Origin: a virus
DNA length: 64,000 nt
Strand: one strand, 5' to 3'
IMG/VR virus record: IMGVR_UViG_3300020182_002648
Coordinates: 1-64,000 of that record
Positions 4,162 through 48,980 of this stretch are shown here, piece after piece. The notes beneath the pieces were generated by a model. It made no database searches. It had not been told where the DNA came from and worked only from the letters and a program-made list of their open reading frames with translations. Positions within the stretch are counted from its first letter, which is position 1. Each line of letters starts with the position of its first letter. The translations under genes and the position numbers were made by a program.

Positions 4162-5268
4162 ATGAGAGAACAACCATTCTATTTCGAGATCAAGGATATA
4201 ATGACCCAATTTGTGGGTGCATTCAATAATATCATCATCAGTCGGCATAACAAGGATAGAGACGTTAGATCGAAGGTTCATGTGAGATATGTATATGCAC
4301 CTAAACAACGTGTTGTACATGATTTAACTAACAAGGCCAAGCATTTAACCTTGCCTGTCGTTGCAGTCAATATTGGAAGTGTCAGTAGAGATGAAAGTAG
4401 AGTGTTTAACAAACTTGAAGGATCGTATTTCGCGAGTGAAGAAACTCACATAAGTGCAGAAAGAACTGAGAAATCTCAGACCACATACAACATGCCCCAG
4501 CCGGTTCCTGTTAACATAGAGGTTAACATGAGTATATTGGCTAGATATCAAACAGACGTTGAGCAAATAATAAGCAATTTCGTTCCTTACAATGATCCGT
4601 ATATTGTGATATCATGGAAATTACCTGAAGGGTTTAGTAGCAAAGATCAGGAGATCAGATCAGAGGTACTATGGAATGGTAATTTGAGTATGAATTATCC
4701 GGATGAATTGAGTAGCACCACACCTTACAGACTAGCATGCGACACGTCGTTCACTATCAAGACATGGTTATTCAAGAAGCACAGAGCTCCTGTGCACAAT
4801 ATATTTCAGATCACAACTAACATGTCTCCTGTACCGGAAATTACAAGCGATTTTTCCTTCATCACACCTTACTACGATGAACTGACCGAAAGTTCGTACA
4901 CATCTGGACTAGGTCCACCACTAACTGCTGCGCCTTTCATAACTCACATAGACACAGAGAGGTACGAGGAGAATGAAATATTAGGTTACAACATGTCATC
5001 AACAACAGGGGTGTACTTATCAAGTAATGATATAAACAGTTTGAGTGGTATGGAGATTGTACCATTCACTGATCCCTACCTATCATCAATATACCCATCC
5101 TTCTCAGGTGTGCCTATCAATTACAATATAGTCAACGACAATAAAATATACTTTGATCTCCCAGAGCTCCCTAAGAACGTGACTTATGACCTGATTGTGC
5201 AAAATATAGGCGGATATGATACAGCACTTAACTCTACACTTCATGGCAAAGGAATATTCCTATCATAA
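4162..5268 (+). CDS. Tail terminator/sheath stabiliser (T4 gp15-like) with C-terminal extension
   Basis: 'FYFEIKDIMTQFVGAFNNIIISR...VRYVYAPKQRV...LTLPVVAV...PVPVNIEVNMSILARYQTDVEQIISNFVPY...SFTIKTWLF' is the gp15 pattern. Confidence 0.85.
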   Translation: MREQPFYFEIKDIMTQFVGAFNNIIISRHNKDRDVRSKVHVRYVYAPKQRVVHDLTNKAKHLTLPVVAVNIGSVSRDESRVFNKLEGSYFASEETHISAERTEKSQTTYNMPQPVPVNIEVNMSILARYQTDVEQIISNFVPYNDPYIVISWKLPEGFSSKDQEIRSEVLWNGNLSMNYPDELSSTTPYRLACDTSFTIKTWLFKKHRAPVHNIFQITTNMSPVPEITSDFSFITPYYDELTESSYTSGLGPPLTAAPFITHIDTERYEENEILGYNMSSTTGVYLSSNDINSLSGMEIVPFTDPYLSSIYPSFSGVPINYNIVNDNKIYFDLPELPKNVTYDLIVQNIGGYDTALNSTLHGKGIFLS

Positions 5269-5277
5269 ATAATTATA

Positions 5278-5802: not shown

Positions 5803-5808
5803 TTGAAT

Positions 5809-9600: not shown

Positions 9601-9603
9601 TAA

Positions 9604-11385: not shown

Positions 11386-11492
11386 CAGTATACTGAATAT
11401 ATATCTATAACAACCAACAATATAGATATATACGTGCCACCTTCTCGTGAAATAGGAGTATAATTATACCGTTGCTCTAATAAATAATTACA

Positions 11493-14400
11493 ATGGCCGG
11501 TAACAGAAAATTTCACAATAAATTCCACTCTGCGAATCATCACACGCTTCCTAGTCCTCATATAATAGATAGCGGGTTAGATCCTATTGCTAGTCATGAC
11601 TTTCCTTTCATTGGAGACTTCGTCCTTAATGGTACAGTTAGCTCTAGTAATAACTACGCTCTTAATAACGGTGGTATTAGAGCAGTAACACTCGACTCAG
11701 TCACTCACGGTTTATCTGCACCGGCAGGTTGGAATGTATTTAGAGATAGTACATACATTGATGGTGATGTCACAATCACGGGTAATCTCAGCGCATTAGG
11801 GCAGTTGACATATTTAAATACTCAGGTTCACGTTACTAGCGCGACTGAGATTGAAGTACAAGCTGATAATAGCAACGGTAAGACAGTAGGACTACTCGTA
11901 GATCAACACGGTAGTAATGACGTTGTACATATCAAAAATGACGGTCAATCGACATTACTGATAACCGGGTCAGCTGCTAATGATGAAGAGCGTGGAGGTT
12001 GGTTAGGTATTAATCTTGCTTCTCTATCTGCTCGTGATATAACACGACCTAATCAAAGAATGACTATAGTCGGTAGTGTATCTGTAGTGCCTGATCCAAT
12101 AGAAGTAGCAGATCAACTAAGTCAAAAGGACCCGGGAACAACTGGCTCACTCTATATAGAAGGTGGACTACATGTTAATGATGCTACATATCTCGATCAA
12201 GTCACGATAGATACGACTGACGGTAAGTTTCTAGTTAGTGGTAATAATAATGACGGTAGTGCTAATATATTTGAAGTAGAAGTACCGACACATTTAGATA
12301 GAACCCATATTGATACAAGTGACGGTGTATTTACGGTCAGTGGTAGCACATCAATGGATGTTGACGTACCGAGTGATTTTTCAGGTCATGCAGATTTAGA
12401 TTCAGTTCATATTGATGTAACAAAAGGAAACTTTGTGGTTAGCGGAAGCAACAACAAAATGTACATCAACACAGCAGGTGGATTAGATGTAAATACATAC
12501 ACTCAACTTGACAAGACGGAGATCAATACAAGTGACGGTAACTTTAATGTTATTGGTCCGAATACGATAACTTTTAATAACTCTGGAGGTCTAGATGTAC
12601 AGCATCACACTAGATTAGATCAAGTAACTATTGATACTACTGATGGTGTATTGTTAGTTAGTGGAACCGGTACACCAGGGCAGGAAAACAAAGTTGATAT
12701 TGATGTACCTATCGAACTCGACCGGACAACAATTGATACGTCTGATGGTGATCTTATTATTACTGGATCAGAAACAGTTTTAATTGACGCAACATCAGGT
12801 GTTTACATTGATTCACATACAAGATTAGACCAAGTAACGATTGACACGACTGATGGTAAGTTGTTAGTTAGTGGTATAGGGGTGCCAGGATTTGAGAATC
12901 CAGTCGATATTGATGTACCTGTCCATATGGATAGAGTAACAATTGACACGACAGATGGTAAGTTGTTAGTTACCGGAAACGGGATTGCTGGATTTGAAAA
13001 CATAGTAGATATTGATGTACCTATTGAACTTGATAGGACTAACATAGACACCACAGATGGTGACTTAACTATCACTGGTGACAATGCTGTTATAATCGAC
13101 TCACTCTCCGGAGTAGATATCGATACTCATACTAGAGTAGATCAACTCACAGTCGATACATCTGATGGTGAGATGTTAATTGAAGGTAGTAATATACTAG
13201 ATGTTGATGTAGATGCCTCTTTCCTTGATAATACTATCTCGGCTAGAAATGTAATAATAGACACCCTACCTGGTACTGGAAATTTATTGATCCGTGGAGG
13301 TGGTAGAGTTGATGTTAATACTGAAACATATTTTGATAATCCAGTTGAGCTAGACAGGGTAACTATTGACACGACTGACGGTGAGTTTATAATAACGAAC
13401 CCTTCTACAGGATTCTTTAATAGAAATAAGATGAGAGTAGAGGTACCACTGCTAGTGGAATCACTAACAGCTACTTCAGATTTATCACCTATATTAATAA
13501 CTGGTAGCAACAATACGATATTCGATACAGAGGTGATTTTTAATCAACCAGTAACAATTAATAATCTTCTAGATATTCCAGGTGATATAACTGCTGGTAA
13601 TATATCAATTTCCGGTACAGCGCTTCTGAGCCGCACCGAGATTGATACCAGTACAGGTACATTTGTAGTTACAGGTAGCAACTCGACCTCAATTAGAACA
13701 GATGCTGAATTCACACAGAATGTCCATATATTAGGAGATTTAAGAGTTGATGGTAATGCATATTTGAGTGCCGGTAGTGGTGGTAATATTAATATCGGTG
13801 ATTCAGATAACGATAATATAATCTTTCATGCTGATGTTAACAGTAATGTACTACCCAACATAACTGATACGTACTCTCTAGGATCAACTAGTAAGAGATG
13901 GATGAGTGTTCATAGTTTATCCTGTTTGGTAGATTACTTAGCTGTTACACAGAACTTCGCATTAGAGGGTGACTTAGATGTAAACGGTACTACGACTTTA
14001 GATGAAGTAGTGATCGATACGACTGATGGAGAGTTTGTTGTAAGCGGATATAATAGATCACATATACACACCAACTTATCAACATACGATGGTATTTCTG
14101 CTTCTGGTGGACCGTGGAGGTTTGGTGACTTTGATGAGATAAAATACGCATCACCTGGTTATGTAAATTATGAAGGTATAGACAACTGGGATACAGGCGC
14201 TGTATTAAACCATCCATTTAGAGTAGATACACGCTCACTTTTTCAACAAGGATTAACAGCGTTCGGACCGGTACAAGTCGGAGAGCTTCCAGCTGGTGTC
14301 ACAGATGAACTAACAGAACCTACATTTGAGGTACTAGGAAACATGCACCTAAGAGGTGGTAATCTGAAAATCACTAGTGATATCAGACATTTAGAGGACG

Positions 14401-17400
14401 AGGATACGTTAATTAGATTCTCACCGGATAAGATAGAACTTCGAGCCGGTGATGCACCTTTGTTAACTTTGGAGGAGAAGCCTGACTCTGTAGGAAACAA
14501 TGCAGTACATATTGGTGCCACTGACCAGCCAGCGGACTTAACATTATATAAAGATTTAAGCGGCGAACAACCTGGTATTTTATATGACAGTACTGATGGT
14601 AGTGTTGAGATACACGGAAATGTTGGCATATTTGGAGCTAATGAATCATCGGAAATTATCGGGGATGGAATTGATGTTCACGGTAGCGTTAGGGTAACAG
14701 AGACGTTATCAGCAAGGAATTTAATAGTTGATTATATAACTGTACAGGAAAGTTCATATGGTAATATAGGTGGTCAAATAGGTGGTGCAGCAGAAATGAG
14801 CACATTGTCTGGTACTGCAGTATTTGGACATGTGACAACAGAGTGGGTGAATGGAGAAACACAGTCCTTTACTGGTACTGACATTGGTATCGAATTTGAT
14901 CTCGAGAACGATGACCAAGGAGACATACAAAAATTATACTCATTCACATTTGAAGCAGTGTCGGCAGACGAGTTGAGAGGTGTTAAGGTAGGTGACACTC
15001 AATCAACAACATATCAATTTGTAGCCAAATGGGATCAATATTACACTCAAGCCTTTGTAAATGAGGTCGAGTATGGTATAATTCATACATCTGAACAGCC
15101 CTTTGTAGACGTCAAGTCTGTGGTATTATCCGCTCACGACGTACCAACAAACGAGAGAATTGTTAAGATAGTACTACAACCATCTGCTGACATTAAGTTT
15201 TGGGCTCATAATATATTAGTTCAAGATAAACCGCAGAGATTAGATACAGTAACTACAGCTGATTTTGACGTCAATGGAGGTTTGACTATTAACGGTCATA
15301 CTTCTGCGGATGGTGACATCGTAGCTACTGGTGATGTGTATGTGAGTGGTGGATCTATTTTTGATAAAGATGTACACATAAGAGGTGATTTAAGAGTAGA
15401 TGGTAATGCATATCTTAGTGCTGGGGCTAGTGGTATAATCAATGTAGGTGATAACGCTAATGACGGTGTAGTATTCAATGCAGATATTCACAGCTCATTC
15501 ATTCCAGACGAGCATCAATTACATGATCTCGGAACAACCGGTGCAGAGTGGAAGAAGTTACATGTCAAGGATATATCAGCATCAAATAGCATTAATTGGA
15601 ATGGTGGTAACTCTTTACAATCAAATAGTGTTTATTCGAGTGTTTGTGCTACTAGTGCGGAATGGGATTCAGTTTACTCGAGTGTGCGTACTACAAGTGC
15701 TAACTGGGACAACGTTTACACAGATGTTTCTGAAACGAGTGCTAACTGGGACAGTGTTTACACAGACGTTTCTGAAACGAGTGCGGAATGGGATTCAGTT
15801 TACTCGAGTGTATGTGCTACGAGCAGTGAATGGGATTCAGTTTACTCGAGCGTTTGTGCTACGAGCAGTGAATGGGATTCAGTTTACTCAAGCGTTCTAT
15901 CAACGAGCGCTGAATGGGATAGCGTTTATACAGATGTTTCTGAAACGAGTGCGGAATGGGATAGCGTTTATACAGACGTATCCAATACTAGCGCTGAGTG
16001 GGATAGTGTTTATACAGACGTATCTGAAACAAGCGGAGATTGGAATAGCGTTTATACAGACGTATCTAATACTAGTGCTGAATGGAATTCAGTTTATTCA
16101 AGCGTTTGTGCCACAAGTAGTGAGTGGGATAGCGTTTATACAGATGTTTCTGAAACGAGTGCGGAATGGGATAGCGTTTATACAGACGTATCCAATACTA
16201 GCGCTGAATGGGATGGGGCGTATAGTTTCGTTAGTAGTGACAGTGCTACCAACAATACCGATTACAATCAAACACACTTTGTTAACGCTAGTGGTGACAC
16301 GATTGTAGGAAGCTTATATATTACTGGAGACCTTAGAGTTGATGGCAATACATATCTAAGTGGTGGTACTGGTGGTGTTATTAATGTGGGAGACGACGCA
16401 GCTGATATCGTATCATTTAATGCGGATATCGGATCAAGTTTAACACCTGATATGCATGGTACATTCGATCTCGGATCAGCAACACAAGCCTGGAGAGACA
16501 TACACACAACTGGGGATATAGTGTGGAACGGTGGTAGTTCGATCAATAGCAATAGTGTATATAGCTTTATCAATACAACCAGTGGAGACGAGGGGTATGC
16601 AACGTTATCTGCGTATAAGGATAATAGATATGTATTGAGACATGATCAGGTACCTGATTTAGCTATCACGAATGTATATCGTGTTTCTAATAGCTCGTTA
16701 GTAGGTACTCTGCAATCCAATATACATCGTGGAGATATTGTACTGGTTAACGACACCGAGGATAATATAATAGCAATCGCGGATCATCCTACAGGAGATT
16801 ATAACTCTGATACTCATGAATATTTCGGGTATGAGAAGCTTTTTGCTCCAGGTAATATGGTTAGGTTTATCAATGGTAAGCAAGGACCTAGTGTAACGTT
16901 CACAACAGATGATTTTGATTTCTCTGCATCAACGAATAAGTTCGTGTTGCAGAGTGATATAGATACATGGAACAGTAACTATAATAGCGTAAATACAACG
17001 AGTGCTGAGTGGGATAGTGTTTATTCGAGTGTTGAGGCAGCAAGTGCTGGTTGGAACAACACACAATCCACTGTAGAACAATTGAGCGCAGCTTGGGAAG
17101 AGAGTGCTGACATTCAATTAGTAGCAGATGATGTTGCTGTGATGGGATCAGTGAGCGGAGATTGGAACCTAATACAATCCACTGTAGAACAATTAAGTGC
17201 TGAGTGGGAAGAGAGTGCTGACATTCAATTAGTAGCAGATGATGTTGCTGTGATGGGATCAGTGAGCGGTGATTGGAATAGTGTTTATACAGACGTATCT
17301 GAAACAAGCGGTGATTGGAATTCGGTTTATACAGACGTATCTGAAACAAGCGGAGATTGGAATAGTGTTTATACAGACGTATCTGAAACAAGCGGTGATT

Positions 17401-20237: not shown

Positions 20238-20249
20238 ATATATACACAT

Positions 20250-21608: not shown

Positions 21609-21654
21609 CCCAACTAAGTAGCTAGTATTGCCGTTATGTGGAAAGTGAAGCATA

Positions 21655-24419: not shown

Positions 24420-24442
24420 AAAACACAGTTACAAATTAGTCT

Positions 24443-26377: not shown

Positions 26378-26383
26378 TTATAT

Positions 26384-30243: not shown

Positions 30244-30249
30244 TTATAC

Positions 30250-30930: not shown

Positions 30931-30935
30931 TCACA

Positions 30936-32824: not shown

Positions 32825-32829
32825 TATAA

Positions 32830-33561: not shown

Positions 33562-33577
33562 CGCATATCTATAAGTA
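33553..33577 (+). promoter_or_regulatory. Tandem late-promoter-like boxes
   Basis: TATAAATA (33553-33560) and TATAAGTA (33570-33577), the latter 6 nt before ATG 33584. Confidence 0.6.
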
Positions 33578-33583
33578 ATACTG

Positions 33584-34222: not shown

Positions 34223-34224
34223 AC

Positions 34225-36004: not shown

Positions 36005-37053
36005 ACCGGAAATTAAGAATATATACCCCAATGAAGAAGGCGACCTCTGAGGAGAACGCACAGGTACTTCAACCCGGTATAAAAAACAGCAAACATTGTG
36101 AATCTGTAGACTTACCAGATCAGGTACGTACTTTAGATCACCCAGATGGTCCTTATGTAGAAAAATTGGCACCTCAAACACGAGGTACTCCAAAAGATAT
36201 TGATCTCATGATACTACACGGATGCATGCAGCCAGATCAAGCAAAGGTATGGAGAGAACAATACCCTGATATACCTGCTATTGTCATGGATTATAAAGAT
36301 GAACTCGAACTATATCACCCGGAACTTCGAGTGTTAGCTCACTTCAAGCGTAATATGGCTATAAGAAAATGGGGTAAACCGCTAGGAGTCAATGACTACA
36401 AACCACACAACGTTCATTTTTCACCATATTGTGTGCGTGAGGATATTGTAGCTGAGATGTCCCAGTATAAAAATACAGCAAGAGATAAGGATGTCTGTTG
36501 CTTTTTTGAGCCTAATGATGACAACTGGAGCAAGCACATTCCCATGCACTATGAACGTGGTGTAGGTTTACGATCTGTAATTGAGAATCATGTTGGTTGG
36601 TGTGGTACCCGCCGGCTAGTTGCATCAACATTACAGGCAGCTAAGAAGTGGTATGGTTGTGGATATGATATGCATATAGGTAAAACAGGTGGTGGCCAGA
36701 CTGACGGTAGGAGATCACCACAACAGGACTATTGTCGATTAATGGCCACGACCAAGATAATAGTGACAGCGACTCCTGACGGATGGGAGGGTGACTATAG
36801 GTTGATGGAATCTATTAGCAGTGGTGCATTAGTATTACATAACCGAATGGCATTACCTCCAGCTGGATTAGTCGATGGTAAGCACTGGATAATATATGAC
36901 GATCATCAGGATATGCTAGAGAAGGTATATTATTACAACACACATCCAGATCAAGCAAGAGTGATAGGAGAGCAGGGAAGAGATTACGTGATGAACAACC
37001 ACAAACCAGAGCACCGAGTCGAGAGTTGGCTTCGAATTATAGGTTTGTTATGA
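36001..37053 (+). CDS. GT-B glycosyltransferase (Glyco_trans_1_2/CgeB-like C-terminus)
   Basis: 'YRLMESISSGALVL...DGKHWIIY....MLEKVYYYNTHPDQARVIGEQGR.YVMNNH'. Confidence 0.8.
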   Translation: MNRKLRIYTPMKKATSEENAQVLQPGIKNSKHCESVDLPDQVRTLDHPDGPYVEKLAPQTRGTPKDIDLMILHGCMQPDQAKVWREQYPDIPAIVMDYKDELELYHPELRVLAHFKRNMAIRKWGKPLGVNDYKPHNVHFSPYCVREDIVAEMSQYKNTARDKDVCCFFEPNDDNWSKHIPMHYERGVGLRSVIENHVGWCGTRRLVASTLQAAKKWYGCGYDMHIGKTGGGQTDGRRSPQQDYCRLMATTKIIVTATPDGWEGDYRLMESISSGALVLHNRMALPPAGLVDGKHWIIYDDHQDMLEKVYYYNTHPDQARVIGEQGRDYVMNNHKPEHRVESWLRIIGLL

Positions 37054-37793
37054 AATTTGTAGGTATAACAGTTTGTGTTAATTATGCACCTATTTTGAGA
37101 TTAGCCTTACAAGAAACAAGCCAAAGACTAGATCGCATTATCGTTGTAACCAAGAAAGATGATATTGACACAATAAAGGTTTGTGAGGGATACAATAATG
37201 TGGATACAGTCTTCTTTGATTTTAGCGTTGATGAGAGGTGGTTTGAGACACACATGAAGCGATTTAAAAATGGGGAGATGAACAATCCGCCTGATATGAG
37301 AAAGCAATATTGGTCTAAGCGTTTATCTGATGCTAATGTCAAGGGATTTAATAAAGGTGGAGGGTTGCGTTTAGGTCAGCAACATGTAGTAAAAAACTAT
37401 CCAGGATCTGTACAAATCATTTTAGATTGTGATATAGTTCTCCCACCTGAATTCAAAACCGCGACGACTAGCATGGATTATATTAATGATGTTTTATATG
37501 TACCTAACGAGCGTCGTGATTACACATCATATACATTATACAAACAGCAAAAAACATTTAAGAACTACTCCACCGCTGGATGGGGATATTTTCAAATGTA
37601 CAGACCGTCAATAGAATCTAACAGAGTGTTTTATGATGACTGGCCAGATGCAGCGAAGACTGATGTTTGGTTCCGTAACGATATATTAAAGGGTGATTTC
37701 AAAAAAAAGATAAAACTCAATACACATGTAGATCACTTAGGACAGGAAGGTGGCTCAATACATTTAACTAAATACAACTTCGACTTTAACTGA
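37050..37793 (+). CDS. Putative GT-A glycosyltransferase
   Basis: 'ITVCVNY', 'FNKG', 'LDCDIVLP', 'GYFQMY', 'HLG'; ATGA overlap at 37050. Confidence 0.75.
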   Translation: MKFVGITVCVNYAPILRLALQETSQRLDRIIVVTKKDDIDTIKVCEGYNNVDTVFFDFSVDERWFETHMKRFKNGEMNNPPDMRKQYWSKRLSDANVKGFNKGGGLRLGQQHVVKNYPGSVQIILDCDIVLPPEFKTATTSMDYINDVLYVPNERRDYTSYTLYKQQKTFKNYSTAGWGYFQMYRPSIESNRVFYDDWPDAAKTDVWFRNDILKGDFKKKIKLNTHVDHLGQEGGSIHLTKYNFDFN

Positions 37794-37794
37794 A

Positions 37795-38790
37795 ATGATA
37801 GTATCACACAAACATAAATTTATATTCATTAAGACACACAAGACGTCAACACAGACGTTTATGAAGTTTATCAAACCACATCTAGGGACAGATGATGTTA
37901 TGGCAGGTGATTCATCTAGTGACGTCAATGAGGATACGAAACTCAATGTAGATAAGAAATTTGAATCCACCGGCAAGAGTGCTCACGAGTATGTTGAAGT
38001 TTACGGAAACCATCTCCCGTGGTTTATGATCAAGGAAATAGTAGGTGATGATATATGGAGCAATTATACAAAGATCACTATTGAGAGAGATCCTTACGAT
38101 AGACTAGTATCACTATTTCATTTCCTTAATAATATTCTCATAAAACCCGGTCTATTCCAGCCCAGCCCGGGTTATCGTTCTCAATTGAAAGGTCCAGAGA
38201 TTAAAGACATGCTACAGAACAGTCTACTTGATCTATATCCAGAAGAGATACGAACCTATTTCGAGGAGCTTACACTCATGCAACTATCCTCACCGGTTAT
38301 GAATCTCATGGATCATGATACGTATGGTCCGATTGGAGTCGAAAAAGAGAGATCATTATATAAGAACACCGCGCGTGATTTAAATCTCAGAATATATGAA
38401 GTCGATAATAGCCCGTTGATCATCAATAACAAGCTCGGACCTTTTCCTTATCTAAACACTTCTGATATATGCATTCGATTAGAACCTTTTCAGAAACATC
38501 AAGCTAGTGAAGGTCAATGTAGATTTCTCAACTATGGATATTACTACGATGGTGATCGATTGCAGGTCGACGAAGTTATAGATTTTAAGGATGTGGGTAA
38601 CAATATAGGTGATACGTTTCAAAAATACGGAATCAATATTAAATGTGATGAGAGTTTATATAATGACAACAGCCAAAACACACACTACAGATCAACTACA
38701 TCCAGTTATAGTACTGATTGGTGGTATGAAGGCCTTAAGGGTTTCATGATCAAGGAATTAATTAATGAGAAACTCATTACGCGCACCTAA
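37795..38790 (+). CDS. Sulfotransferase family 2-like
   Basis: 'MIVSHKHKFIFIKTHKTSTQT' and 'ERDPYDRLVS'. Confidence 0.8.
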   Translation: MIVSHKHKFIFIKTHKTSTQTFMKFIKPHLGTDDVMAGDSSSDVNEDTKLNVDKKFESTGKSAHEYVEVYGNHLPWFMIKEIVGDDIWSNYTKITIERDPYDRLVSLFHFLNNILIKPGLFQPSPGYRSQLKGPEIKDMLQNSLLDLYPEEIRTYFEELTLMQLSSPVMNLMDHDTYGPIGVEKERSLYKNTARDLNLRIYEVDNSPLIINNKLGPFPYLNTSDICIRLEPFQKHQASEGQCRFLNYGYYYDGDRLQVDEVIDFKDVGNNIGDTFQKYGINIKCDESLYNDNSQNTHYRSTTSSYSTDWWYEGLKGFMIKELINEKLITRT

Positions 38791-38795
38791 TTACA

Positions 38796-38803
38796 TATAA
38801 ATA
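38796..38803 (+). promoter_or_regulatory. T4-type late promoter
   Basis: Exact TATAAATA 9 nt before ATG 38813; heads the run of genes through ugd-glf-fcl-gmd. Confidence 0.7.
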
Positions 38804-38812
38804 TATGTATAT

Positions 38813-40651
38813 ATGGAAGAAGAGATGATTGTCAATTTATGCACCTTTATGGGACGAAAGAATAATGTTAAGATATTACTTGTATACGTGGAAGAAGCGC
38901 TCAAGATAAATGCTATTGATAATTATTATATGATAGATATGACTCGTAATCATAAGGATCACGAATATATATTTAGCGAACAACAACGACTCAATGAATT
39001 ATATCCAGAGCGAGTCCACGTTGTGAATAGGGAGATCCGGAGGAAACAGTTAGACGATAACACGGCTATGGACACAATCGGTAGTTGGGCACCATTCTAT
39101 GAGTTCTGTAGTCAATTTAGTGACAATGATGTAATTATAAAGTGTGATGATGACACTACATACTTTGACGTAGAGACTATTAGAGCTGCAGCAGAGGTAA
39201 GATTTAAAAACAAACACCCGTTCCTGATGCATGGTAATACTATTAATAATGGTATATGTGCTTTTCATCAGCAACGCAAAGGGATATGGACGTTTGAAGG
39301 TAATGATGTACTAGACAATTACCCTACAAGTGGACTAACAGGTCCCTTGTTTTCTCACCCGGAAATTGCATGCGGGTGTCATGAACAGTTCACACGAGAC
39401 TTAATAGCAGATGAGAGTAATATTAGTAAATATGCCTTAAACTCAAATCCATACTTCACAGCAAGAGTGAGTATTAATATGATATTCATGTTGGGAAGTG
39501 ATAGAGACATTATCAGCAAGATTGACACGCAAGATGAGTATGTTAGTAGCAGTAAGATAGGACAACAAACAGACCGCCCTAACATGTTGATTGGTGATTT
39601 TACGTGCGCTCATCACACATACGGAGTTCAAGAACCAGTAATGGAGGAGTTAGGTACATACAAAATGTACAAGGAGTTGGCGGATAAATACTACAGTAAC
39701 GACACAGTACGTACTAACAAGAGTATCACCCAACCAGAAGGACAATCACTGACACTCAAGTCTGATGATATATATTTGGCTAGATACTGGAGTGGTGAAA
39801 ATAGTATAACTATCAAGAACAACAGGACTGATAAATATATCAATTTAGATTGGGTCAAGACAGAGAGAGTTAAGTTTATCGAGGATAAACCCGGGCAGAA
39901 AGAACGAGTAGGAACAGGAGTGTACTGGTATAAGGCAGAGTTGTCAGCTAGTGACAAGCCAATGGTATTTAATCTAGATGATAAAGAGAAAGGAAACCTA
40001 CAAATACAGGATTGCACAGAGATATTTAAAACATCTCAACCAGGTAATAAGGCTGAACGGTTCATGACATTTCCTGTTAAGAAGTGGTTCCAACAGAACT
40101 ATAAAAAACAATACGTCAAGATCAATAACATAGGTACAGATGAAGCACAGATAGAGACTCCTCATCACCCTGGATTCAATTTAGTTGCAGATGATCGTAA
40201 TCCTGACAAGACTTTATACTTCTTTACAAACGGTGGAGAAGATACATGGACCGTAGAGGATCTGAGCAATACAAATAATCTAATCGTACCTATTTCAATT
40301 GATCGTGGTAATCAGGATGAGTGTGAGAATGACCCTACTACCGCCCGGGTTGTTAATGATGACAGTTTACCGGAGTGTAGGAATTTTAGAGAATTCTACT
40401 GGATGGTTAATGGGTATATTTGGGAAATGGTACCTCAAGGAGATAATGAATGTCATGTAAAGTTGATAGCAGATGATCTAGATGATTTGTATCTCTCCGG
40501 AGAAGCTTCCGGTAAAGTGAGGTTGAGTGCCAATAAGGATCTCTGGAAGTTAAGCACCGATAAGTTTTTAGTCCACAACTCGACAAAATTAAAGTTATCT
40601 ATATCACCCACTGGAGTTGAGATTAACTTAACTGGAACTAAATTATCGTAA
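38813..40651 (+). CDS. Putative GT-A glycosyltransferase with C-terminal beta-rich domain
   Basis: 'FMGRK', DxD-type 'IIKCDDD', 'GNTINNG', 'RVSINMI'; C-terminal half is beta-rich with spaced Trp residues. Confidence 0.55.
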   Translation: MEEEMIVNLCTFMGRKNNVKILLVYVEEALKINAIDNYYMIDMTRNHKDHEYIFSEQQRLNELYPERVHVVNREIRRKQLDDNTAMDTIGSWAPFYEFCSQFSDNDVIIKCDDDTTYFDVETIRAAAEVRFKNKHPFLMHGNTINNGICAFHQQRKGIWTFEGNDVLDNYPTSGLTGPLFSHPEIACGCHEQFTRDLIADESNISKYALNSNPYFTARVSINMIFMLGSDRDIISKIDTQDEYVSSSKIGQQTDRPNMLIGDFTCAHHTYGVQEPVMEELGTYKMYKELADKYYSNDTVRTNKSITQPEGQSLTLKSDDIYLARYWSGENSITIKNNRTDKYINLDWVKTERVKFIEDKPGQKERVGTGVYWYKAELSASDKPMVFNLDDKEKGNLQIQDCTEIFKTSQPGNKAERFMTFPVKKWFQQNYKKQYVKINNIGTDEAQIETPHHPGFNLVADDRNPDKTLYFFTNGGEDTWTVEDLSNTNNLIVPISIDRGNQDECENDPTTARVVNDDSLPECRNFREFYWMVNGYIWEMVPQGDNECHVKLIADDLDDLYLSGEASGKVRLSANKDLWKLSTDKFLVHNSTKLKLSISPTGVEINLTGTKLS

Positions 40652-41481
40652 TGAAAGTCGGAGTTATTGGAGCAGGATTCGTTGGAAACGCGATGAGTCA
40701 ATTAAGCCCAGGAGTGGATATAATCGTATGGGACACTGACGAGAGCAAGAGGGTACCAGTTGACATAACATTCGAAGATTTTGTTAAACAGTCTGAAATA
40801 GTCTTTATAGCAGTACCTACACCGATGGATAAAGATGGTAGATGTCATACTGATATCGTTGAGAGTGTAGTTAGCGACGTACGTAGGATTGATAATGAAC
40901 AGCACATAGTAATAAGATCAACAGTACCTCCTGGTACATGTGCTCGATTAGGTGTTAGTTTCATGCCAGAGTTCTTGACAGAGAGATATTGGAAGACTGA
41001 TTTTATACGAACAACAAAGTGGATTATCGGTACAAATGATAATATACTATTCGAATTGATGACAACCATGTTCAAACTAGCGAAAGATCGAGGATGTATC
41101 GATAGCTGTGTGACTGAACAATACACACCTAGTGAAGCTGAGATGATGAAGTATACCGCTAATTGTTTTCTAGCGACCAAGATAAGCTTCTTCAATGAAG
41201 TTAGCGAGTTATGTGACACAATTGGTATTGATTATAATAATATCATCAAATTCTGTGGTGGTGATCCTCGAATTGGTAACAACCACACCCGCGTGCCTGG
41301 TCACGACGGAAAGAGAGGATATGGAGGTACATGCTTTCCAAAGGATATGAACGCATTAGCGCATGAGTTTGAAGCGAACGGTTTAGAGTCATATATAATA
41401 AAAGCATCAATCGAACGAAATGAACATCATGACCGGCCTGAACGCGATTGGAAGTCGGATAGTGGTAGAGCAGTAATTTAA
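40651..41481 (+). CDS. ugd: UDP-glucose/GDP-mannose 6-dehydrogenase, short form lacking the C-terminal domain
   Basis: GAGFVG, AVPTP, RSTVPPGT, PEFL, catalytic 'GYGGTCFPKD'. Confidence 0.9.
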   Translation: MKVGVIGAGFVGNAMSQLSPGVDIIVWDTDESKRVPVDITFEDFVKQSEIVFIAVPTPMDKDGRCHTDIVESVVSDVRRIDNEQHIVIRSTVPPGTCARLGVSFMPEFLTERYWKTDFIRTTKWIIGTNDNILFELMTTMFKLAKDRGCIDSCVTEQYTPSEAEMMKYTANCFLATKISFFNEVSELCDTIGIDYNNIIKFCGGDPRIGNNHTRVPGHDGKRGYGGTCFPKDMNALAHEFEANGLESYIIKASIERNEHHDRPERDWKSDSGRAVI

Positions 41482-41483
41482 TA

Positions 41484-42500
41484 ATGAAGGTAAATATATT
41501 TGGATGCGGGATGAGCGGCACAGTCGCGGCGATCTTATTTAAAGAACAAGGACATGATGTTGAGATATTTGAGACTAGGTCTCATGTTGCTGGCAATTGT
41601 TTTGATAAAAAGAATGAGGATGGTTGCACAGTACATGAGTATGGTTCGCATATCTTCCATACCAACGATAAAGAGGTATGGGACTTTTTAAACCGGTACA
41701 CAAAATTTAACGACTATCAGCACCGTGTCAGAGCGAACACCAAGGAAGGATTATTGAGCATTCCATTCAGTAAAAAGACAGAACAAGAACTCGGACGTGA
41801 TCTGTCACCTAAAGAGATACAAGAGTTGTTATTCCGTGATTATTCCGAACGTCATTGGGGCATACCATGGGAGGAATTACCCAAGAGTATAAGCGGCAGA
41901 GTACCTAACAAACGTGACAATTTCGACGACCGATACTTCACTGACACATATCAAGGTATACCAGAGAAAGGATATACTACCATGTTTAATAATATGTTAG
42001 ATGGTATCAAGGTTAACGTTGGTGTAGATCGTGATTTACGCAAACGTATCAAAGGGGACCTTACAGTTTGGACCGGAAAGATATCTGAGTATTTCGACTT
42101 AGCATACGGTCATCTCCCTTATCGTTCCCTTAGATTTGAACACACACGCGTAAAACGAGACCCGATGTACACATGGGACAAAGGATCAGTTATTAACGAA
42201 TGTAACACCAAGCCTTTCAACCGTACTATGGACAACAGTGTGTATCTCAAGGAGGATGTGACTCACACTATTCATACACGTGATCATCCAGAGGAATATC
42301 AACCAGGTGTCAATGATCCAATTTACCCAAAGACATTCGGAGAAGGTCCAGAGGTATATAAGAAATATTTACAAGCCGCCGAAGCAGATAAGAATACTAT
42401 ATTCTTAGGCCGATTAGCCACATACAGATACTTGGATATGTGGATGGCAGTAAAACAAGTTATAGCTAAACTTGAAACTAGTGATAAATTAAAACGATGA
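41484..42500 (+). CDS. glf: UDP-galactopyranose mutase
   Basis: FAD motif GCGMSG, 'HEYGSHIFHT', 'YQGIPEKGYT', 'LPYRSLRF', 'GRLATYRYLDM'. Confidence 0.95.
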   Translation: MKVNIFGCGMSGTVAAILFKEQGHDVEIFETRSHVAGNCFDKKNEDGCTVHEYGSHIFHTNDKEVWDFLNRYTKFNDYQHRVRANTKEGLLSIPFSKKTEQELGRDLSPKEIQELLFRDYSERHWGIPWEELPKSISGRVPNKRDNFDDRYFTDTYQGIPEKGYTTMFNNMLDGIKVNVGVDRDLRKRIKGDLTVWTGKISEYFDLAYGHLPYRSLRFEHTRVKRDPMYTWDKGSVINECNTKPFNRTMDNSVYLKEDVTHTIHTRDHPEEYQPGVNDPIYPKTFGEGPEVYKKYLQAAEADKNTIFLGRLATYRYLDMWMAVKQVIAKLETSDKLKR

Positions 42501-43423
42501 AATTGTTAATAACAGGTGGTACTGGTTTGGTAGGAACCGGAATTAAATCAATCGCAAGTGAATTTCCAGAGCTTGATATATCTTATATGTCTTCGAAGGA
42601 TTGTAACTTGCTTGATTACGATCAAGTGTTGGAATATTTCTGGAACGAAGAACCAGAATGTATTATTCACTTGGCTGCAAATGTTGGTGGGTTGTACAAG
42701 AACATGAACCAAAAAGTGGAGATGTTTGATGATAATATTCAAATGAATCTCAACGTGATAAAAGCTGCATTCTCAAATGATATCAAGAACTTGATAGGTA
42801 CTTTATCAACATGCATCTTTCCTGACAACACAACATATCCTATCAACGAGACCATGCTTCATGATGGAGCACCACACACATCAAATGACGCATATGCGTA
42901 TGCAAAAAGAATGATCAAGGTTCAATGTGACGCATATAGCGCTCAGCATGATGTGAATTATTCGTGCATAATACCTACGAACATATACGGAGAAGGTGAC
43001 AATTTCTCATTAGAGGATGGACATGTGATACCCGCATTGATCCACAAATGCTTTAACGCTGTTAAAAATGGTACTGATTTTGAAGTGTATGGTACAGGTA
43101 AGCCGTTGCGTCAGTTTATATACTCAAAGGACCTAGGTAGATTGATACTAAAATCAGTATACAAACTAATGCAAGAAAGTATAATACTGGCACCTCGTGA
43201 GGAAGTCGCGATTGGTGATGTGGCTCGTTACATCGCTAGAGCGTTTGACTACGAAGACCGTATGATATTCAATGATAGCTTTAGTGATGGTCAATACAAG
43301 AAGACAGCTGATAACTCCAAACTAATGGAGTTGTTCCCGGATTTTGAATTTATGAAAATCGAGGAAGGTATAGCTGAGACCGTTAAGTATTTCAAACATG
43401 AGTACCCAAATTTAAGACTATGA
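42497..43423 (+). CDS. fcl: GDP-L-fucose synthase
   Basis: TGGTGLVG, HLAANVGG, LSTCIFP, YAYAKR, PTNIYG.DNF, HVIPALIHK, GTGKPLRQFIYS. Confidence 0.96.
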   Translation: MKLLITGGTGLVGTGIKSIASEFPELDISYMSSKDCNLLDYDQVLEYFWNEEPECIIHLAANVGGLYKNMNQKVEMFDDNIQMNLNVIKAAFSNDIKNLIGTLSTCIFPDNTTYPINETMLHDGAPHTSNDAYAYAKRMIKVQCDAYSAQHDVNYSCIIPTNIYGEGDNFSLEDGHVIPALIHKCFNAVKNGTDFEVYGTGKPLRQFIYSKDLGRLILKSVYKLMQESIILAPREEVAIGDVARYIARAFDYEDRMIFNDSFSDGQYKKTADNSKLMELFPDFEFMKIEEGIAETVKYFKHEYPNLRL

Positions 43424-43773
43424 ATAACAACACAGATGAATCTATCCGCCCATGGGGTAACTACGAGATCTTACTAGATACAGACTACTGTAAGGTTAAG
43501 AGAATTTATGTAAAGCCTGGTCAACGATTGAGTTACCAGTACCATCACAAGAGACAAGAAGCATGGACTGTGGTTAGTGGTGTGGCACGTATAACAATCG
43601 ACGACGAGACTAATGACTACAAACCAGGCGAGACTGTGCTGATTCCATTAGGAGCAAAGCATCGGATGGCCAATCCAGAAACTGATGAGATGATGATACT
43701 TGTTGAGGTACAGACAGGTACGTATTTTGGTGAGGATGATATTGTCCGTGTGCAGGACGATTACAACAGATAA
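43420..43773 (+). CDS. Mannose-6-phosphate isomerase type II, stand-alone C-terminal cupin
   Basis: 'RPWGNY', '[23 protein letters not shown]', '[18 protein letters not shown]'. Confidence 0.92.
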
Positions 43774-43777
43774 TTTT

Positions 43778-44824
43778 ATGAAAATAGCACTTATAACAGG
43801 AGTCAATGGACAAGACGGCTCTTATCTAGCAGAATTATTATTAGATAAGGGTTATGATGTGTGGGGAGTAGCAAGACGCGCATCAGATATAAACACACAA
43901 CGCATAGAACATCTTTACTCGAACAAGAAATTGTTTCTCAGATACGGTGACATGACTGATGGTATCAATCTTGTCAACATATTGTATGAAATAAAAACTA
44001 CATATCCAGATATGAACCGGTTAGAGATATACAATCTAGCTGCTATGAGCCACGTCAAGGTGAGTTTTGACATGCCTGAGTATACAGCGAACGCTGACGG
44101 TACTGGTGTGCTAAGATTGTTAGAGGCTGTGAGGTCTACCGGACTGATGGATGTCACAAGATTTTATCAAGCAGCTACATCAGAACTATACGGACTGGTT
44201 CAAGAGGTACCTCAAAAAGAAACCACGCCATTTTATCCTAGATCTCCTTATGGTGTTGCTAAACTGTATGGATATTGGATAACCAAAAATTACAGAGAGT
44301 CATACGACATGTTCGCCGCTAATGGTATTTTATTCAATCATGAGAGTCCCAGAAGAGGTCCAACATTTGTGACTCGTAAGGTCACTAGAGGGTTGAACAT
44401 GATATTGACTGGTGAGCGTGATAAGTTAGTGATGGGTAATATTGATGCCAAGCGAGACTGGGGGCATGCTAAGGATTATGTTGAAGGCATGTGGCGTATA
44501 TTACAAGCTGACAAACCAGATGATTATGTGCTGTCAACTAATGAATTTCATTCAGTTAGAGAGTTTATCGAGAAAAGCTTCTCTATGAGAGGTTTTGACA
44601 TTCGATGGAAAGGCACTGGAGTAGATGAGATCGGGTATGATTATAATAACGGTAGAGAGTTGATACATATCTCAGATAAATACTTTCGACCAGCTGAAGT
44701 TGAAGAACTGTTAGGAGACTCAACAAAAGCCAGAACAGAACTAGGTTGGGAGCCTCAATATTCATTTGATCAACTAGTAAAAGAGATGGTCGATCATGAT
44801 TGCCCACCGAATAATACTGATTAA
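43778..44824 (+). CDS. gmd: GDP-mannose 4,6-dehydratase
   Basis: [52 protein letters not shown]. Likely start is ATG 43778. Confidence 0.97.
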
Positions 44825-44876: not shown

Positions 44877-47800
44877 ATGACATTTGAGCACACAAATTTA
44901 GACGAATTAAAAGGTAAATTCGAAGACGGGGACAGGCCTATAGGTGAAGATTTTGCAAGGCTATTAGATAGCTGCCACAATACCCTACAGGATACCGACG
45001 TTGGTATAACCAGGACATTAACTGTAAGTGGAGAGACATCATTTAATAGTAGTGTGGGTATATCATCTAGTTTATCAGTCGGAGGCGCGTTAGGAGTAAC
45101 CGGTTCGACTGTTCTGCACAGTACATTAGGTGTATCTGATACGGTTAGTTTCAATGGAGCATTAGGTGTGGTTGGAGCAGTTGGGTTTGGATCAACACTA
45201 TCAGTATCAGGCCCAGTTAATTTAAGTAACTCGCTTGTGGTGAGTGGATCCACTAGTCTACATGACGGTTTAGCAGTAATTGGGGCAACTCTTCTACGTG
45301 ATTCACTAGATGTATTAAGTGATACTAGGATTATATCTTTAACAGCCTCAGGTAGTACAGTACTAACAGACACATTATCAGTCACAAAAGGTGTTGTACT
45401 TCAGGATACAGTAGATATAGCAGGACACACGGCTATCAATGCTCCGTTAGACGTATTGGGGCTTACTGAGCTTAGTGGTACTACAATCAACGGGACACTA
45501 CAAACCAAAGGATTCGCGACGTTTGACAGTAATGTTCATATCAAAGGTAACTTACGTGTTGATGGAAACGCATATCTGAGCGCCGGCAGTGGTGGTAATA
45601 TACATGTAGGTGATACAGATGAGGATAATCTTATATTCAATGCTGATATTGCGAGTGATGTTAACTTGGATTCAGACAAAACGTACGATTTAGGTTCAAC
45701 TACCAAACGATGGAAGAATGTTTATGTAGCTGATATTGATGTTGATGGTCTAGTTGATGGTAGAGATATTTCAGATGATGGTCAAAAACTAGATAGTGTC
45801 AGCAGTACAGTTGACACAGGTAGTGCAAATTGGACTGATACATACACTAACGTTTCATCTTTTAGTGCCAATCGTGATAGTGTTTATTCTAGTGTCAACA
45901 ACACCAGCGCTCAATGGAACTCAGTATATACAGATGTTAGTGACACCAGCGCTCAATGGAACTCAGTATACACAGATGTTAGTGACACCAGCGCTCAATG
46001 GAACTCAGTATACACAGATGTATCAGAAACAAGTGGAACATGGAATGATGTTCATACGAACGTTAATGTTAATAGTGCTAATTGGGATGAATTATACACC
46101 ACCGCTCAAGCTAATAGTTCAGCTTGGTATGCAGACACAATAGCTGAACTTACTGATGTTGATGTGACCGGAGCATTAAATGACTCGATATTAGTGTACA
46201 GTAGCAGTATCGACAAATGGGTTGTCACAACACAATCGGATAACGATCTCAGAGCCACCGCCACCTTAGAAGCAATCACGCATAACGGAAGCAACATCGA
46301 TCTAGATAATAAAACATTAATTCTAACTGATAATGATCGAACGATAGCAGCACGTACTGTGACGTTCACAACATCTGCTGCTTTGGTTACTGGTACATAT
46401 GTTGAGGTGGATGATTCATCATATGTATATGGTGTATCCGGGTTGGATCGGAGCAATTTAAACGGGATAGCAGAGATAACAACAAATGTTATCGAGCTTG
46501 CTAGGATCAATGGTGATATAAGTATCGCAGCTAGCGTCACTGATGCTAAGATCAGATTAACACAACTGACCGGAGGACCAGGAGGCAACACTGAGATCGC
46601 TGGTACTGCTACCGGTAATACCAATGACGCGCTCTTCCATGGAGTAGACGGCACGAACAATCACAACCCAAAATTCACCGGAGGAGAGTCTGTAGATAAT
46701 TTTGAATCACTAAACGACACACCTGGTAGTTACGCTGGTAATGCTGGTAATTTCGTCAAAGTCAACACCGGTGAGGACGCGCTAGAATTTATATCACACC
46801 CGACAGATGAATGGGATTCAGTTTATAGTTTCGTGAATGGTGATAGTGCCACCAACAATACTGATTATAATCAGACAGTATTTCTCAAGCTTAGTGGTGA
46901 TGTGATGACCGGTGGATTGACAGTACAAGGTGATATATCTGCTACTGGTGATATCTATCTATCCAACGATAGTTTAAACTTCGCTGATGGCGAAACATTT
47001 TCTAGTACTGATAGTGTCAATGTGAAGGGTACGTATGCTAGTGTTACAGCCACTAGTGGTGAGTGGGATAGCGTTTATGCTAGCGTTACAGCCACGAGTG
47101 GTGAGTGGGATTCAGTATATTCAAGCGTATCATCTACAAGTGCTAATTGGGATTCTGTTTACTCTAGCGTTACAGCTACAAGCGGTGAATGGGATTCAGT
47201 TTACACAGATGTATCCGAAACAAGTGGTGAGTGGGATTCAGTATACTCAAGTGTTACTGCTACAAGTGGTGAGTGGGATAGCGTTTATACAGACGTATCC
47301 GAAACAAGTGGTGAGTGGGATAGCGTTTATGCTAGCGTTTCATCTACAAGTGGTGAGTGGGATAGCGTTTATACAGACGTATCCGAAACAAGTGGTGAGT
47401 GGGATAGCGTTTATACAGACGTATCTAATACAAGTGGTGAATGGAATTCGGTTTATAGTTATATCAACACAGCATCTGGTTTCGGTCTAGCTACTGTAGA
47501 CGCTCAAGGTAAATTGTTAACAACACAGATACCAGAGCTTAGTATAACTCGCGTACATGCGGTTACCAGTCCATCAGAAGTCGCTGTGTTAAACCCCGGG
47601 AATGGTATTCAATCAGGAGACGTTGTTGTCGTATCATCTACACATGATAACCTAATAGCAGTAGTTGATTCACCTACAGGTACATATACGAGTGGTACAG
47701 GAGATTACGTAGGGTATGCTAAGCTAGCTCTACCGGATGGCTTAGTACAGACTGTTAATGGTAAGCAGGGTCCTAGCGTTGTTCTTAACTCAGATGATTT

Positions 47801-48980
47801 TGATGATGCAGTCACTGCACATAAGTTCGTGTCAGCTGTTGATAAGACAAAATGGAATTTAAATAACACAACAGTGCATGCTAACAGCGGTTCTTGGATA
47901 GGTGGTAACAGTGTTTACAATAGCGTGCTTGCCACAAGTGCTGATTGGAACAGTGTTCATGCAAGTGTCTTAGCTAACAGCGGTTCTTGGATAGGTGGTA
48001 ACAGCGTTTACAATAGCGTGCTTGCCACAAGTGCTGATTGGAATAACGTTCATGCAAGTGTCTTAGCTACGAGCGCTGAATGGGATAGCACACATACATC
48101 AGTTTTAGATACAAGTGCTAATTGGGATAATGTCTATACGGACGTATCTAATACAAGTGCTAAATGGAATGATGTTTACAGTTTTGTTAATAGTGATAGC
48201 GCTACCAACAATACAGATTATAACCAGACACACTTTGTTAATGCTAGTGGAGATACAATAACCGGTAAGTTGGAGATTGAATCTAGCGAACTAGAGGTAG
48301 GTGGTAATATAACAATGGCGGGAGATTTAATACACCAAGATGATACAGGTACTAAGATATCATTTAATACAGATATAATAACACTAGAAGCAAATGGACA
48401 GGAATTCATAACCATAGACGGTACTGCTCCAACACCTGATACAGTTATTATTAATGAAGCTGCGACTACACCAGTGAATTTCATAATTAAAACTCCAAGC
48501 AATCACCCAGCATTGTACTTTAGAGGTAGTGATGGTTCTCTAGGTCTAGGAACTTCCTCCATGAATGTTAAGTTAGCAGTAGTGGGTGGTATATCCGCTA
48601 GTGAGGGTATTGAGATAGAGGAGCATGCTACTATAAAAGGGAACACTACACTAAGTGGTAGTGTTGATGTAAAGAGTACACTAACCGGTGTTAGTGCTGA
48701 GTTTACCGGTAGTTTATCCACCACCGGTGAGATGATCAGTGCTGGTGTTCCTCTACATGAGATATTCTCAACGGACGTGGATATATGGAACGACTTGACT
48801 GTACATGGTAGTATAAGTGCTACTGAAAGTTTATCAGCTACAGATATAGTAGCGAAAACCGGTTATCATACTTTAACTGGAGCCGATGTAAAAGTCACAG
48901 GAATTACACAAGATATTAACATTGGTGGTCATGTATTACATATAGTGAATGGATTAATTGTTGAGGTGACTGATGAGTAG
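44877..48980 (+). CDS. Second modular fibre protein (1367 aa), paralogous to the 2914-aa protein
   Basis: N-terminal 'LKGKFEDGDRP..EDFARLLDS'; 12-aa beta repeats; shared GNLRVDGNAYLSAG, DSATNNTDYNQT and NGKQGPSV modules; 14-aa Trp arrays; CATAAATA at 44857-44864. Confidence 0.85.
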   Translation: MTFEHTNLDELKGKFEDGDRPIGEDFARLLDSCHNTLQDTDVGITRTLTVSGETSFNSSVGISSSLSVGGALGVTGSTVLHSTLGVSDTVSFNGALGVVGAVGFGSTLSVSGPVNLSNSLVVSGSTSLHDGLAVIGATLLRDSLDVLSDTRIISLTASGSTVLTDTLSVTKGVVLQDTVDIAGHTAINAPLDVLGLTELSGTTINGTLQTKGFATFDSNVHIKGNLRVDGNAYLSAGSGGNIHVGDTDEDNLIFNADIASDVNLDSDKTYDLGSTTKRWKNVYVADIDVDGLVDGRDISDDGQKLDSVSSTVDTGSANWTDTYTNVSSFSANRDSVYSSVNNTSAQWNSVYTDVSDTSAQWNSVYTDVSDTSAQWNSVYTDVSETSGTWNDVHTNVNVNSANWDELYTTAQANSSAWYADTIAELTDVDVTGALNDSILVYSSSIDKWVVTTQSDNDLRATATLEAITHNGSNIDLDNKTLILTDNDRTIAARTVTFTTSAALVTGTYVEVDDSSYVYGVSGLDRSNLNGIAEITTNVIELARINGDISIAASVTDAKIRLTQLTGGPGGNTEIAGTATGNTNDALFHGVDGTNNHNPKFTGGESVDNFESLNDTPGSYAGNAGNFVKVNTGEDALEFISHPTDEWDSVYSFVNGDSATNNTDYNQTVFLKLSGDVMTGGLTVQGDISATGDIYLSNDSLNFADGETFSSTDSVNVKGTYASVTATSGEWDSVYASVTATSGEWDSVYSSVSSTSANWDSVYSSVTATSGEWDSVYTDVSETSGEWDSVYSSVTATSGEWDSVYTDVSETSGEWDSVYASVSSTSGEWDSVYTDVSETSGEWDSVYTDVSNTSGEWNSVYSYINTASGFGLATVDAQGKLLTTQIPELSITRVHAVTSPSEVAVLNPGNGIQSGDVVVVSSTHDNLIAVVDSPTGTYTSGTGDYVGYAKLALPDGLVQTVNGKQGPSVVLNSDDFDDAVTAHKFVSAVDKTKWNLNNTTVHANSGSWIGGNSVYNSVLATSADWNSVHASVLANSGSWIGGNSVYNSVLATSADWNNVHASVLATSAEWDSTHTSVLDTSANWDNVYTDVSNTSAKWNDVYSFVNSDSATNNTDYNQTHFVNASGDTITGKLEIESSELEVGGNITMAGDLIHQDDTGTKISFNTDIITLEANGQEFITIDGTAPTPDTVIINEAATTPVNFIIKTPSNHPALYFRGSDGSLGLGTSSMNVKLAVVGGISASEGIEIEEHATIKGNTTLSGSVDVKSTLTGVSAEFTGSLSTTGEMISAGVPLHEIFSTDVDIWNDLTVHGSISATESLSATDIVAKTGYHTLTGADVKVTGITQDINIGGHVLHIVNGLIVEVTDE
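45901..46020 (+). repeat. Near-exact 42-bp triplicate (TSAQWNSVYTDVS)
   Basis: acaccagcgctcaatggaactcagtata.acagatg occurs three times. Confidence 0.9.
47035..47465 (+). repeat. 42-bp (14-aa) coding tandem array, 10 units
   Basis: Trp codons from 47064 to 47442 at 42-nt spacing. Confidence 0.92.

Follow-up and report, generated by a model that had tools for sequence, protein, structure and literature searches.

A hydrophobic-Ser/Thr-Ala/Gly tripeptide enriched in fibre modules of a T4-like phage: a putative strand-to-turn motif

Pelagimyophages and cyanomyophages encode a hypervariable host recognition cluster, in which fibre genes are combined with non-syntenic glycosyltransferase genes and which ends at a neck gene (Zaragoza-Solas et al. 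2020, PMC7029224). The mean size of this cluster in pelagimyophages is 44.6 kb, and modification of the host O-chain is the role favored by these authors for its transferases (PMC7029224). A comparable block of 43.7 kb (positions 5278-48980), composed of fibre genes and one glycosyltransferase island, occupies most of the DNA analyzed here, a window of 64,000 nucleotides that forms the first 64 kb of the 146.8-kb, about 65% complete IMG/VR contig IMGVR_UViG_3300020182_002648. The subject of this report is the tripeptide [LIVTF][ST][AG], which recurs in the fibre proteins of this block, in part within arrays of a 14-residue Trp/Ser repeat, and which had been proposed (hereafter the original prediction) to serve as acceptor sequon for the neighboring glycosyltransferases. 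On balance, and with moderate confidence, the evidence favors a different role, that of a structural strand-to-turn motif belonging to one paralogous family of fibre modules.

The source phage, uncultured and marine, is a distant T4-like virus whose gp23 is only ~35% identical to cyanophage capsid proteins, and it therefore represents a separate lineage. The fibre-plus-glycosyltransferase block itself is an already published host recognition cluster: it falls within that definition in lying inside the structural region, in mixing sugar-nucleotide genes with fibre genes and in having a neck gene at its end, and relatives of the phage exchange the glycosyltransferase cassette for other genes as described for pelagimyophages. 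Its upstream border differs, being formed by gp15 here and by VrlC there, and neither the motif nor the 14-residue repeat has been described in PMC7029224.

Three further systems offer points of comparison. The first comprises AIDA-I, TibA and Ag43, which are hyper-heptosylated by Aah/TibC enzymes of the BAHT family on a beta-helix of imperfect 19-residue repeats (PMC3835316, PMC4358343), the modified residue opening the loop between strands without any sequence consensus (PMC3835316). The Ser of the 14-residue unit is similarly predicted to open a short loop that links two strands of a beta-helical repeat, but no GT9/BAHT enzyme was detected in this genome and the island holds no heptose pathway, so that the likeness may point to a possible mechanism only. 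The second is virion O-glycosylation in mycobacteriophages (Freeman et al. 2023), where phage-encoded glycosyltransferases modify the virion proteins of the phage itself; the glycans there are reported on the C-terminal ends of capsid and tail-tube subunits, whereas the motif described here is found on fibre repeats (cited in PMC12619734 and PMC12801897). The third consists of the beta-helices of curli CsgA, bactofilin and tailspikes, in which short strand-plus-arc units stack and invariant small polar residues occupy fixed positions. The 14-residue Trp/Ser unit has no sequence homology to these beta-solenoids and would share their architecture alone.

Enrichment of the tripeptide in fibre modules

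Motif counts were compared with the expectation from 1000 composition-preserving shuffles of each protein. On this basis, the ten fibre-block proteins contain 209 sites against ~79 expected (individual counts are given in Table 1), and the enrichment is real, at two to three times chance. As the original prediction had supposed by eye, the motif is rarer in enzymes: the non-virion proteins of the window, island included, show no excess (33 versus 38.9), and the same is true of the rest of the genome beyond the window (114 versus 112.5). The excess is also more than a consequence of Ser, Thr, Gly and Ala content, since it remains in the shuffled comparison and reaches z ~16 for the ten fibre-block proteins when shuffling is confined to local windows of 15-60 residues. 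A single slot of the 14-residue unit accounts for 60 of the 209 sites, in agreement with the claim that most units carry TSA or TSG. With these units masked, 148 sites versus 68 are still present in the fibres, including 66 versus 23.3 (z = 9.4) in the giant fibre and 30 versus 16.3 in the fibre adjoining the island, and with all internal repeats collapsed the count is 101 versus 48.4 (z = 8.0), or 59 versus 20.6 (z = 8.7) for the narrower form [LIVFA]S[AG].

Each of the three positions contributes to the signal. At the center, Ser is enriched 2.7-fold and Thr 1.65-fold, every other residue reaching ~1.7-fold at most; at the third position, Ala (2.4-fold) and Gly (2.1-fold) stand above all others (at most ~1.6-fold); and at the first position Leu (3.2-fold), Val (2.6-fold), Ala (2.25-fold), Ile (2.1-fold) and Phe (2.0-fold) are preferred, with Thr at just 1.2-fold outside the arrays and charged or polar residues depleted. 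Among the 8000 exact tripeptides, LSA ranks 2nd, ISA 14th and VSG 18th. The specificity of all three positions together with these ranks means that post-hoc choice of the motif is no explanation.

The examples on which the original prediction was built are all present in the translations: NLSALG, YLSAG (four copies, with one of YLSGG in addition), ISAS, LSARN, LTAS, VSGS/VSGN and LSAT. The clustering reported for gp15 was equally borne out, with YTSG, LTAA, YLSS (twice), SLSG and SFSG found as quoted and with 6 motif sites against 1.7 expected (P = 0.006), five of the six lying in the ~140-residue C-terminal extension. The broader attribution to structural or virion proteins, which holds for the fibre block and gp15, does not extend to the other virion genes of the window: gp23 contains the quoted ALSG but has no excess (4 versus 3.4), and none was found in the neck, gp4, protease or scaffold proteins. 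Outside the window, a 1493-residue, Ser/Thr/Ala/Gly-rich tail fibre of the same phage (G000:C1:142050-146531, minus strand) is depleted in the motif (12 versus 22), a 935-residue gp37-like tail fibre (G000:C1:109829-112636, minus strand) shows a mild excess (20 versus 12.6), and T4 gp34-37 show none. A generic property of phage fibres was ruled out by T4 gp34-37 together with these two fibres, in which there is little or no excess. The motif is thus a feature of one fibre-module family and not of virion proteins as such, and because the excess occurs in the fibre block and not in T4 gp34-37 or the other fibres, it follows fold family, not virion location.

Outside the arrays, several sites belong to duplicated modules. 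The giant fibre carries the module IDTTDGxFxVSG at 11 sites and VDGNAYLSAG at four, a fifth copy of the latter being present in the fibre adjoining the island (44877-48980); the flanking-context profile of non-array sites contains weak signals only, which come mainly from duplicated modules. Residues 225-560 of the giant fibre (11493-20237) contain about 10 copies of a ~34-residue module (h-D-x-h-x-IDT[TS]DGxFxVSG..., h being hydrophobic), a second repeat family. Conservation was followed in two proteins. In the family of the 452-residue fibre, all 42 aligned homologs are enriched (summed counts 497 versus 224), the Ser/Thr at motif centers is retained at 0.86 compared with 0.63 for other Ser/Thr (P = 0.002), and the motif class is kept in at least 65% of members at 8 of 12 sites. 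In the gp15 extension, the relative L004 (68% identity) retains the LSS, SLSG and SFSG sites and L005 (45%) a part of them, three of five sites persisting down to 45% identity.

A 14-residue repeat and its predicted architecture

The arrays consist of units with the consensus W-[DN]-S-V-Y-x-x-V-x-x-T-S-[AG]-x, and the Ser of the TS[AG] slot is present in all 35 units of the two giant-fibre arrays. To follow this repeat further, IMG/VR was searched with a DNA pattern of two W-[DN]-x-V-[YH]-xx-V units 42 nucleotides apart, in which the TS[AG] slot was left unspecified. The search returned 73 loci, and the same pattern gave one match, on a contig of a metagenome-assembled genome, in 596 Gbp of cellular genomes; the repeat is essentially phage-specific. 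In a locus-weighted profile built on the 41 loci with at least four units, the residues of the search pattern and its surroundings were W (1.00), S2 (0.90), V3 (0.99), Y4 (0.95) and V7 (1.00), and the free slot read T (0.67), S (1.00) and A/S/G (1.00). The slot Ser occurs in 418 of 418 units of these 41 loci, encoded by AGY in 277 and by TCN in 141, with both codon classes in 17 loci, and the identity of this residue is therefore under absolute selection. The unit matches no Pfam family above cut-off. Solved relatives were found for none of the arrays, the giant fibre, the 1367-residue fibre or the 452-residue family, megablast and tblastn against the phage collection returned nothing useful, the repeats apparently being masked by the low-complexity filter, and a literature search for the repeat sequence yielded nothing relevant.

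A single-sequence AlphaFold monomer of residues 653-941 of the 1367-residue fibre (46833-47699 of the window), with a predicted local distance difference test score (pLDDT) of 70-82 over the array, predicts 11-residue beta-strands joined by 3-residue turns with a period of 14. Every array turn resolved by DSSP is TS[GA], in one case TSGE, some unit boundaries being read as continuous strand, and the Ser is predicted at the exposed turn rather than buried. The best structural neighbors of the model are beta-solenoids at Z 10-11 (curli CsgA, SufD, an SRRP domain, UpaB and tailspikes), and the flat plateau of these Z values indicates shared architecture, not homology; Foldseek against the PDB gave no significant match. 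The orthologous fibre of the relative L081 has a match to the Bactofilin beta-helix. The array may thus be pictured as a beta-solenoid-like stack of strand-plus-turn units.

Briefly, the structural reading of the tripeptide would run as follows. The hydrophobic residue that is the last of a beta-strand to face inward would be followed by Ser, less often Thr, and then by a small Ala or Gly opening a tight turn or arc. In the arrays, the 14-residue unit would be made up of an 11-residue strand (xWDSVYxxVxx) and a 3-residue TS[AG] turn, and stacking of the units would form a beta-solenoid-like shaft in which the arc may require the small hydroxyl side chain of Ser, for example for a Ser ladder or as a turn cap. 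The high number of motif sites would then have arisen by tandem and dispersed duplication of modules inside the hypervariable host recognition cluster. The position of the turn is read from one moderate-confidence AlphaFold monomer, and the structural reason suggested for the invariance of Ser is likewise a deduction.

The glycosyltransferase island and competing explanations

According to the original prediction, the motif excess should follow the presence of glycosyltransferase islands among related phages. Observed-to-expected motif ratios were determined, with arrays masked, in the orthologous big fibres of relatives whose loci were compared by synteny and domain search. The excess is independent of an adjacent island, amounting to 1.84-2.09 times expectation with one and 2.19-2.28 times without. 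The first group comprises the window (1.84), with its island upstream of the big fibre, L068 (2.06), where the end of an island lies upstream (GMD 98% identical), and L088 (2.09), which has an island tail upstream (a 612-residue protein, GLF, FCL, GMD and UGDH). The second comprises L081/L086 (2.28), with four upstream open reading frames devoid of sugar-related domains, and L087 (2.19), arranged as L081 (upstream frame 90% identical). L081, L087 and L088 are equidistant from the window, at 80-83% identity in gp23 and 42-43% in the big fibre, and the island-less relatives L057 and L058 keep arrays with the invariant Ser. Given this equal excess in orthologous fibres without the island, the claim that the neighboring glycosyltransferases use the motif as their acceptor sequon is not supported.

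A wider form of the same idea holds that the Ser of the motif, above all the invariant Ser of the arrays, is an O-glycosylation acceptor for soluble phage glycosyltransferases, which would act in the cytoplasm on a strand-loop-strand motif and place regularly spaced glycans along the fibre shaft. Heptose transfer by Aah/TibC is cytoplasmic. The array model predicts the Ser in an exposed position, at the beginning or in the middle of a 3-residue inter-strand loop, which is the geometry read by Aah/TibC (PMC3835316), and its absolute invariance with switching between codon classes would suit an acceptor. Phage-encoded glycosylation of virion proteins has its precedent in the mycobacteriophages (cited in PMC12619734 and PMC12801897), and both of the complete genomes that bear arrays contain GT2 genes. 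The island lies inside the fibre block on the same strand, and none of its 22 proteins has a transmembrane-like segment (maximum Kyte-Doolittle 19-residue mean 1.4). The island is therefore without a flippase, polymerase, ligase or initiating phosphoglycosyl transferase of its own, and such a set of soluble proteins would be compatible with a cytoplasmic acceptor.

Against this explanation stands, besides the equal excess in island-less orthologs, the lack of any enzyme that accompanies the repeat. Homologs of the island are found in the flanks of just 3 of the 73 array loci, none of the three being a transferase, and no transferase recurs as a neighbor across the 73 loci. Non-fibre neighbor families occur in 10 loci at most, and those that recur are capsid, protease, terminase, kinase and deaminase. 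Of the 23 array-bearing records, 21 of which are fragments, 13 have no GT2, GT1, GT8 or Maf match, and three (G004, with 96 kb and 23 units, G002 and G015) lack an epimerase as well. A Maf-type transferase (PF01973) is absent from all 26 records searched, this phage included, GT1 gave one sub-threshold match only, in G017, and GT9/BAHT (PF01075) has no match in the 146.8-kb contig, which is itself about 65% complete. In addition, the other Ser/Thr-rich tail fibre of this phage is depleted in the motif, and the published view of such islands is host O-chain modification (PMC7029224). Overall, this explanation is considered possible but rather unlikely.

Several observations weigh against the strand-to-turn reading and have to be set beside this evidence. 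In this genome the fibres showing the excess do flank the island, and all island-less relatives are contig fragments, so that glycosyltransferases elsewhere in their genomes are possible. The structural evidence consists of one model, a monomer predicted from a single sequence, for a protein that is probably trimeric, and the turn location applies to array sites, since the model of residues 60-780 of the giant fibre (pLDDT 38) was unusable and its motif sites had no clear secondary-structure bias. Moreover, Thr, Asn, Asp or Gly are usually tolerated at generic turns, and a second conserved Ser within the unit gives way to Asn in 9% of units whereas the slot Ser is invariant, which may leave room for a chemical role of the hydroxyl. 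Attachment of a sugar at the motif is possible but not supported. It is quite unlikely, on the present data, that the invariant array Ser is a conserved site of covalent modification, of which O-glycosylation, at one glycan per 14 residues along the fibre shafts of a whole class of marine phages, would be the likeliest kind; with the same reserve, the soluble phage transferases involved could read the strand-loop-strand shape instead of a sequence and derive either from interchangeable cassettes of the cluster or from elsewhere in the genome. A GT8 glycosyltransferase (E = 5.8e-25) is encoded outside the window and island, at G000:C1:93236-93808 on the minus strand, and transferases therefore need not be adjacent in this phage.

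A sequon look-alike occurs within the unit, about half of the array units reading W-D-S-V and the other half N-S-V. D-S-V resembles the D-[ST]-[ALIVMT] O-glycosylation sequon of Bacteroidota, a periplasmic system. It was set aside on account of this location and of the N-S-V half of the units, and shows the ease with which repeats yield such look-alikes.

The unit could alternatively be read as two heptads of a trimeric coiled coil, with TS[AG] as a helix packing feature whose Ser occupies the core (a) or flanks it (e) near a Trp layer. Proteins of the DUF948 family are helical, and summed over the repeat the matches to the DUF948 profile reach 36.7 bits, just short of the cut-off of 37.2, which none of the stretches passes singly; the spacing of the invariant residues (0/3-4/7/10-11/14) would also fit. 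However, AlphaFold predicts strands instead of helices, the structural neighbors are beta-solenoids, and the unit is rich in Val, Tyr, Trp, Thr and Ser, is broken by T-S-G-[DN] and contains hardly any helix formers, which makes a coiled coil very improbable. The weakest alternative, an artefact of Ser/Thr/Ala/Gly-rich composition, tandem-repeat counting or post-hoc motif choice, could appeal to the single repeat slot behind 60 sites and to several further sites in duplicated modules, but is practically negligible given an excess that withstands shuffling at both global and local scale as well as masking of the arrays and collapse of all repeats, three specific positions, the high tripeptide ranks and depletion in another Ser/Thr/Ala/Gly-rich fibre of the genome.

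If the strand-to-turn reading is correct, the motif would equip an unannotated repeat, the building block of giant fibres in uncultured marine T4-like phages, with a simple signature in sequence and with an initial hypothesis on its fold, not a coiled coil but a beta-solenoid in which 11-residue strands alternate with TS[AG] turns. It would also serve as a warning that short-motif "sequons" in fibres may stem from fold constraints. Should the Ser be modified instead, regular spacing of glycans along the fibre shaft of a phage would be seen here for the first time, and the glycosyltransferase cassettes of host recognition clusters would have to be re-read as serving virion decoration instead of host surface modification, with implications for host recognition and perhaps also for grazing and immune evasion.

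Gene content and plasticity of the block

The features of the window are listed in Table 1. Fibre-like genes, the giant fibre among them, run from 5278 to 25120, and the fibre downstream of the island (44877-48980) is followed in order by neck, gp4-like, prohead protease, scaffold and gp23 genes. The 1265-residue protein has no Pfam or PHROG match.

Table 1. Positions of the main features in the window, with motif counts as observed versus expected (aa, amino acids)
Feature	Position	Strand	Basis or remark
Tail sheath stabilizer gp15	4162..5268	+	PF16724, E = 1.8e-20, residues 10-222
Fibre-block protein, 174 aa	5278..5802	+	two degenerate 14-residue units at residues 120 and 161; motif 3 vs 1.7
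Fibre-like protein, 1265 aa	5803..9600	+	motif 13 vs 6.4 (z = 2.8)
Giant fibre, 2914 aa, main motif carrier	11493..20237	+	motif 101 vs 30.5 (z = 14)
Array, 14 units of the 14-residue repeat	15648..16235	+	unit starts
Array, 21 units of the 14-residue repeat	17259..18140	+	unit starts
Fibre protein, 452 aa, family of 92 homologs	20250..21608	+	family search; motif 12 vs 5.5
Fibre-like protein, 723 aa, weak motif excess	21655..23826	+	motif 10 vs 7.2 (z = 1.2)
Island of 19.7 kb, 22 genes (glycosyltransferases, sulfotransferases, sugar-nucleotide enzymes)	25131..44824	+	Pfam
Fibre adjoining the island, 1367 aa, three blocks of 14-residue units	44877..48980	+	motif 55 vs 20.6 (z = 8)
Three blocks of 14-residue units in the 1367-aa fibre	45816-46109, 47049-47468, 47931-48191	+	
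Major capsid protein gp23, negative example for the motif	52437..53894	+	phrog_138, E = 1.1e-88

Pfam matches of the island comprise GT2, GT90, GT92, GT10, Nucleotid_trans, Glyco_trans_1_2 and two Sulfotransfer_2 domains and, on the sugar-nucleotide side, UGDH, GLF, GMD and epimerases. Relatives differ widely in what their host recognition cluster contains. At L081:1703-7441, and likewise in L087, four fibre-like open reading frames take the place of the 20-kb island, and at L005:3541-7996 the portal and neck genes directly follow gp15, the fibre-plus-island block being elsewhere or absent.

One island product, a 612-residue protein (38813-40651), is itself motif-enriched (8 versus 2.2) and has no Pfam match, and a search of the ESM Atlas returned viral hypothetical clusters only. 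A CDDD stretch lies in its possibly GT-A-like N-terminal half, and a 50% identical counterpart is encoded beside GLF in the island of L088.

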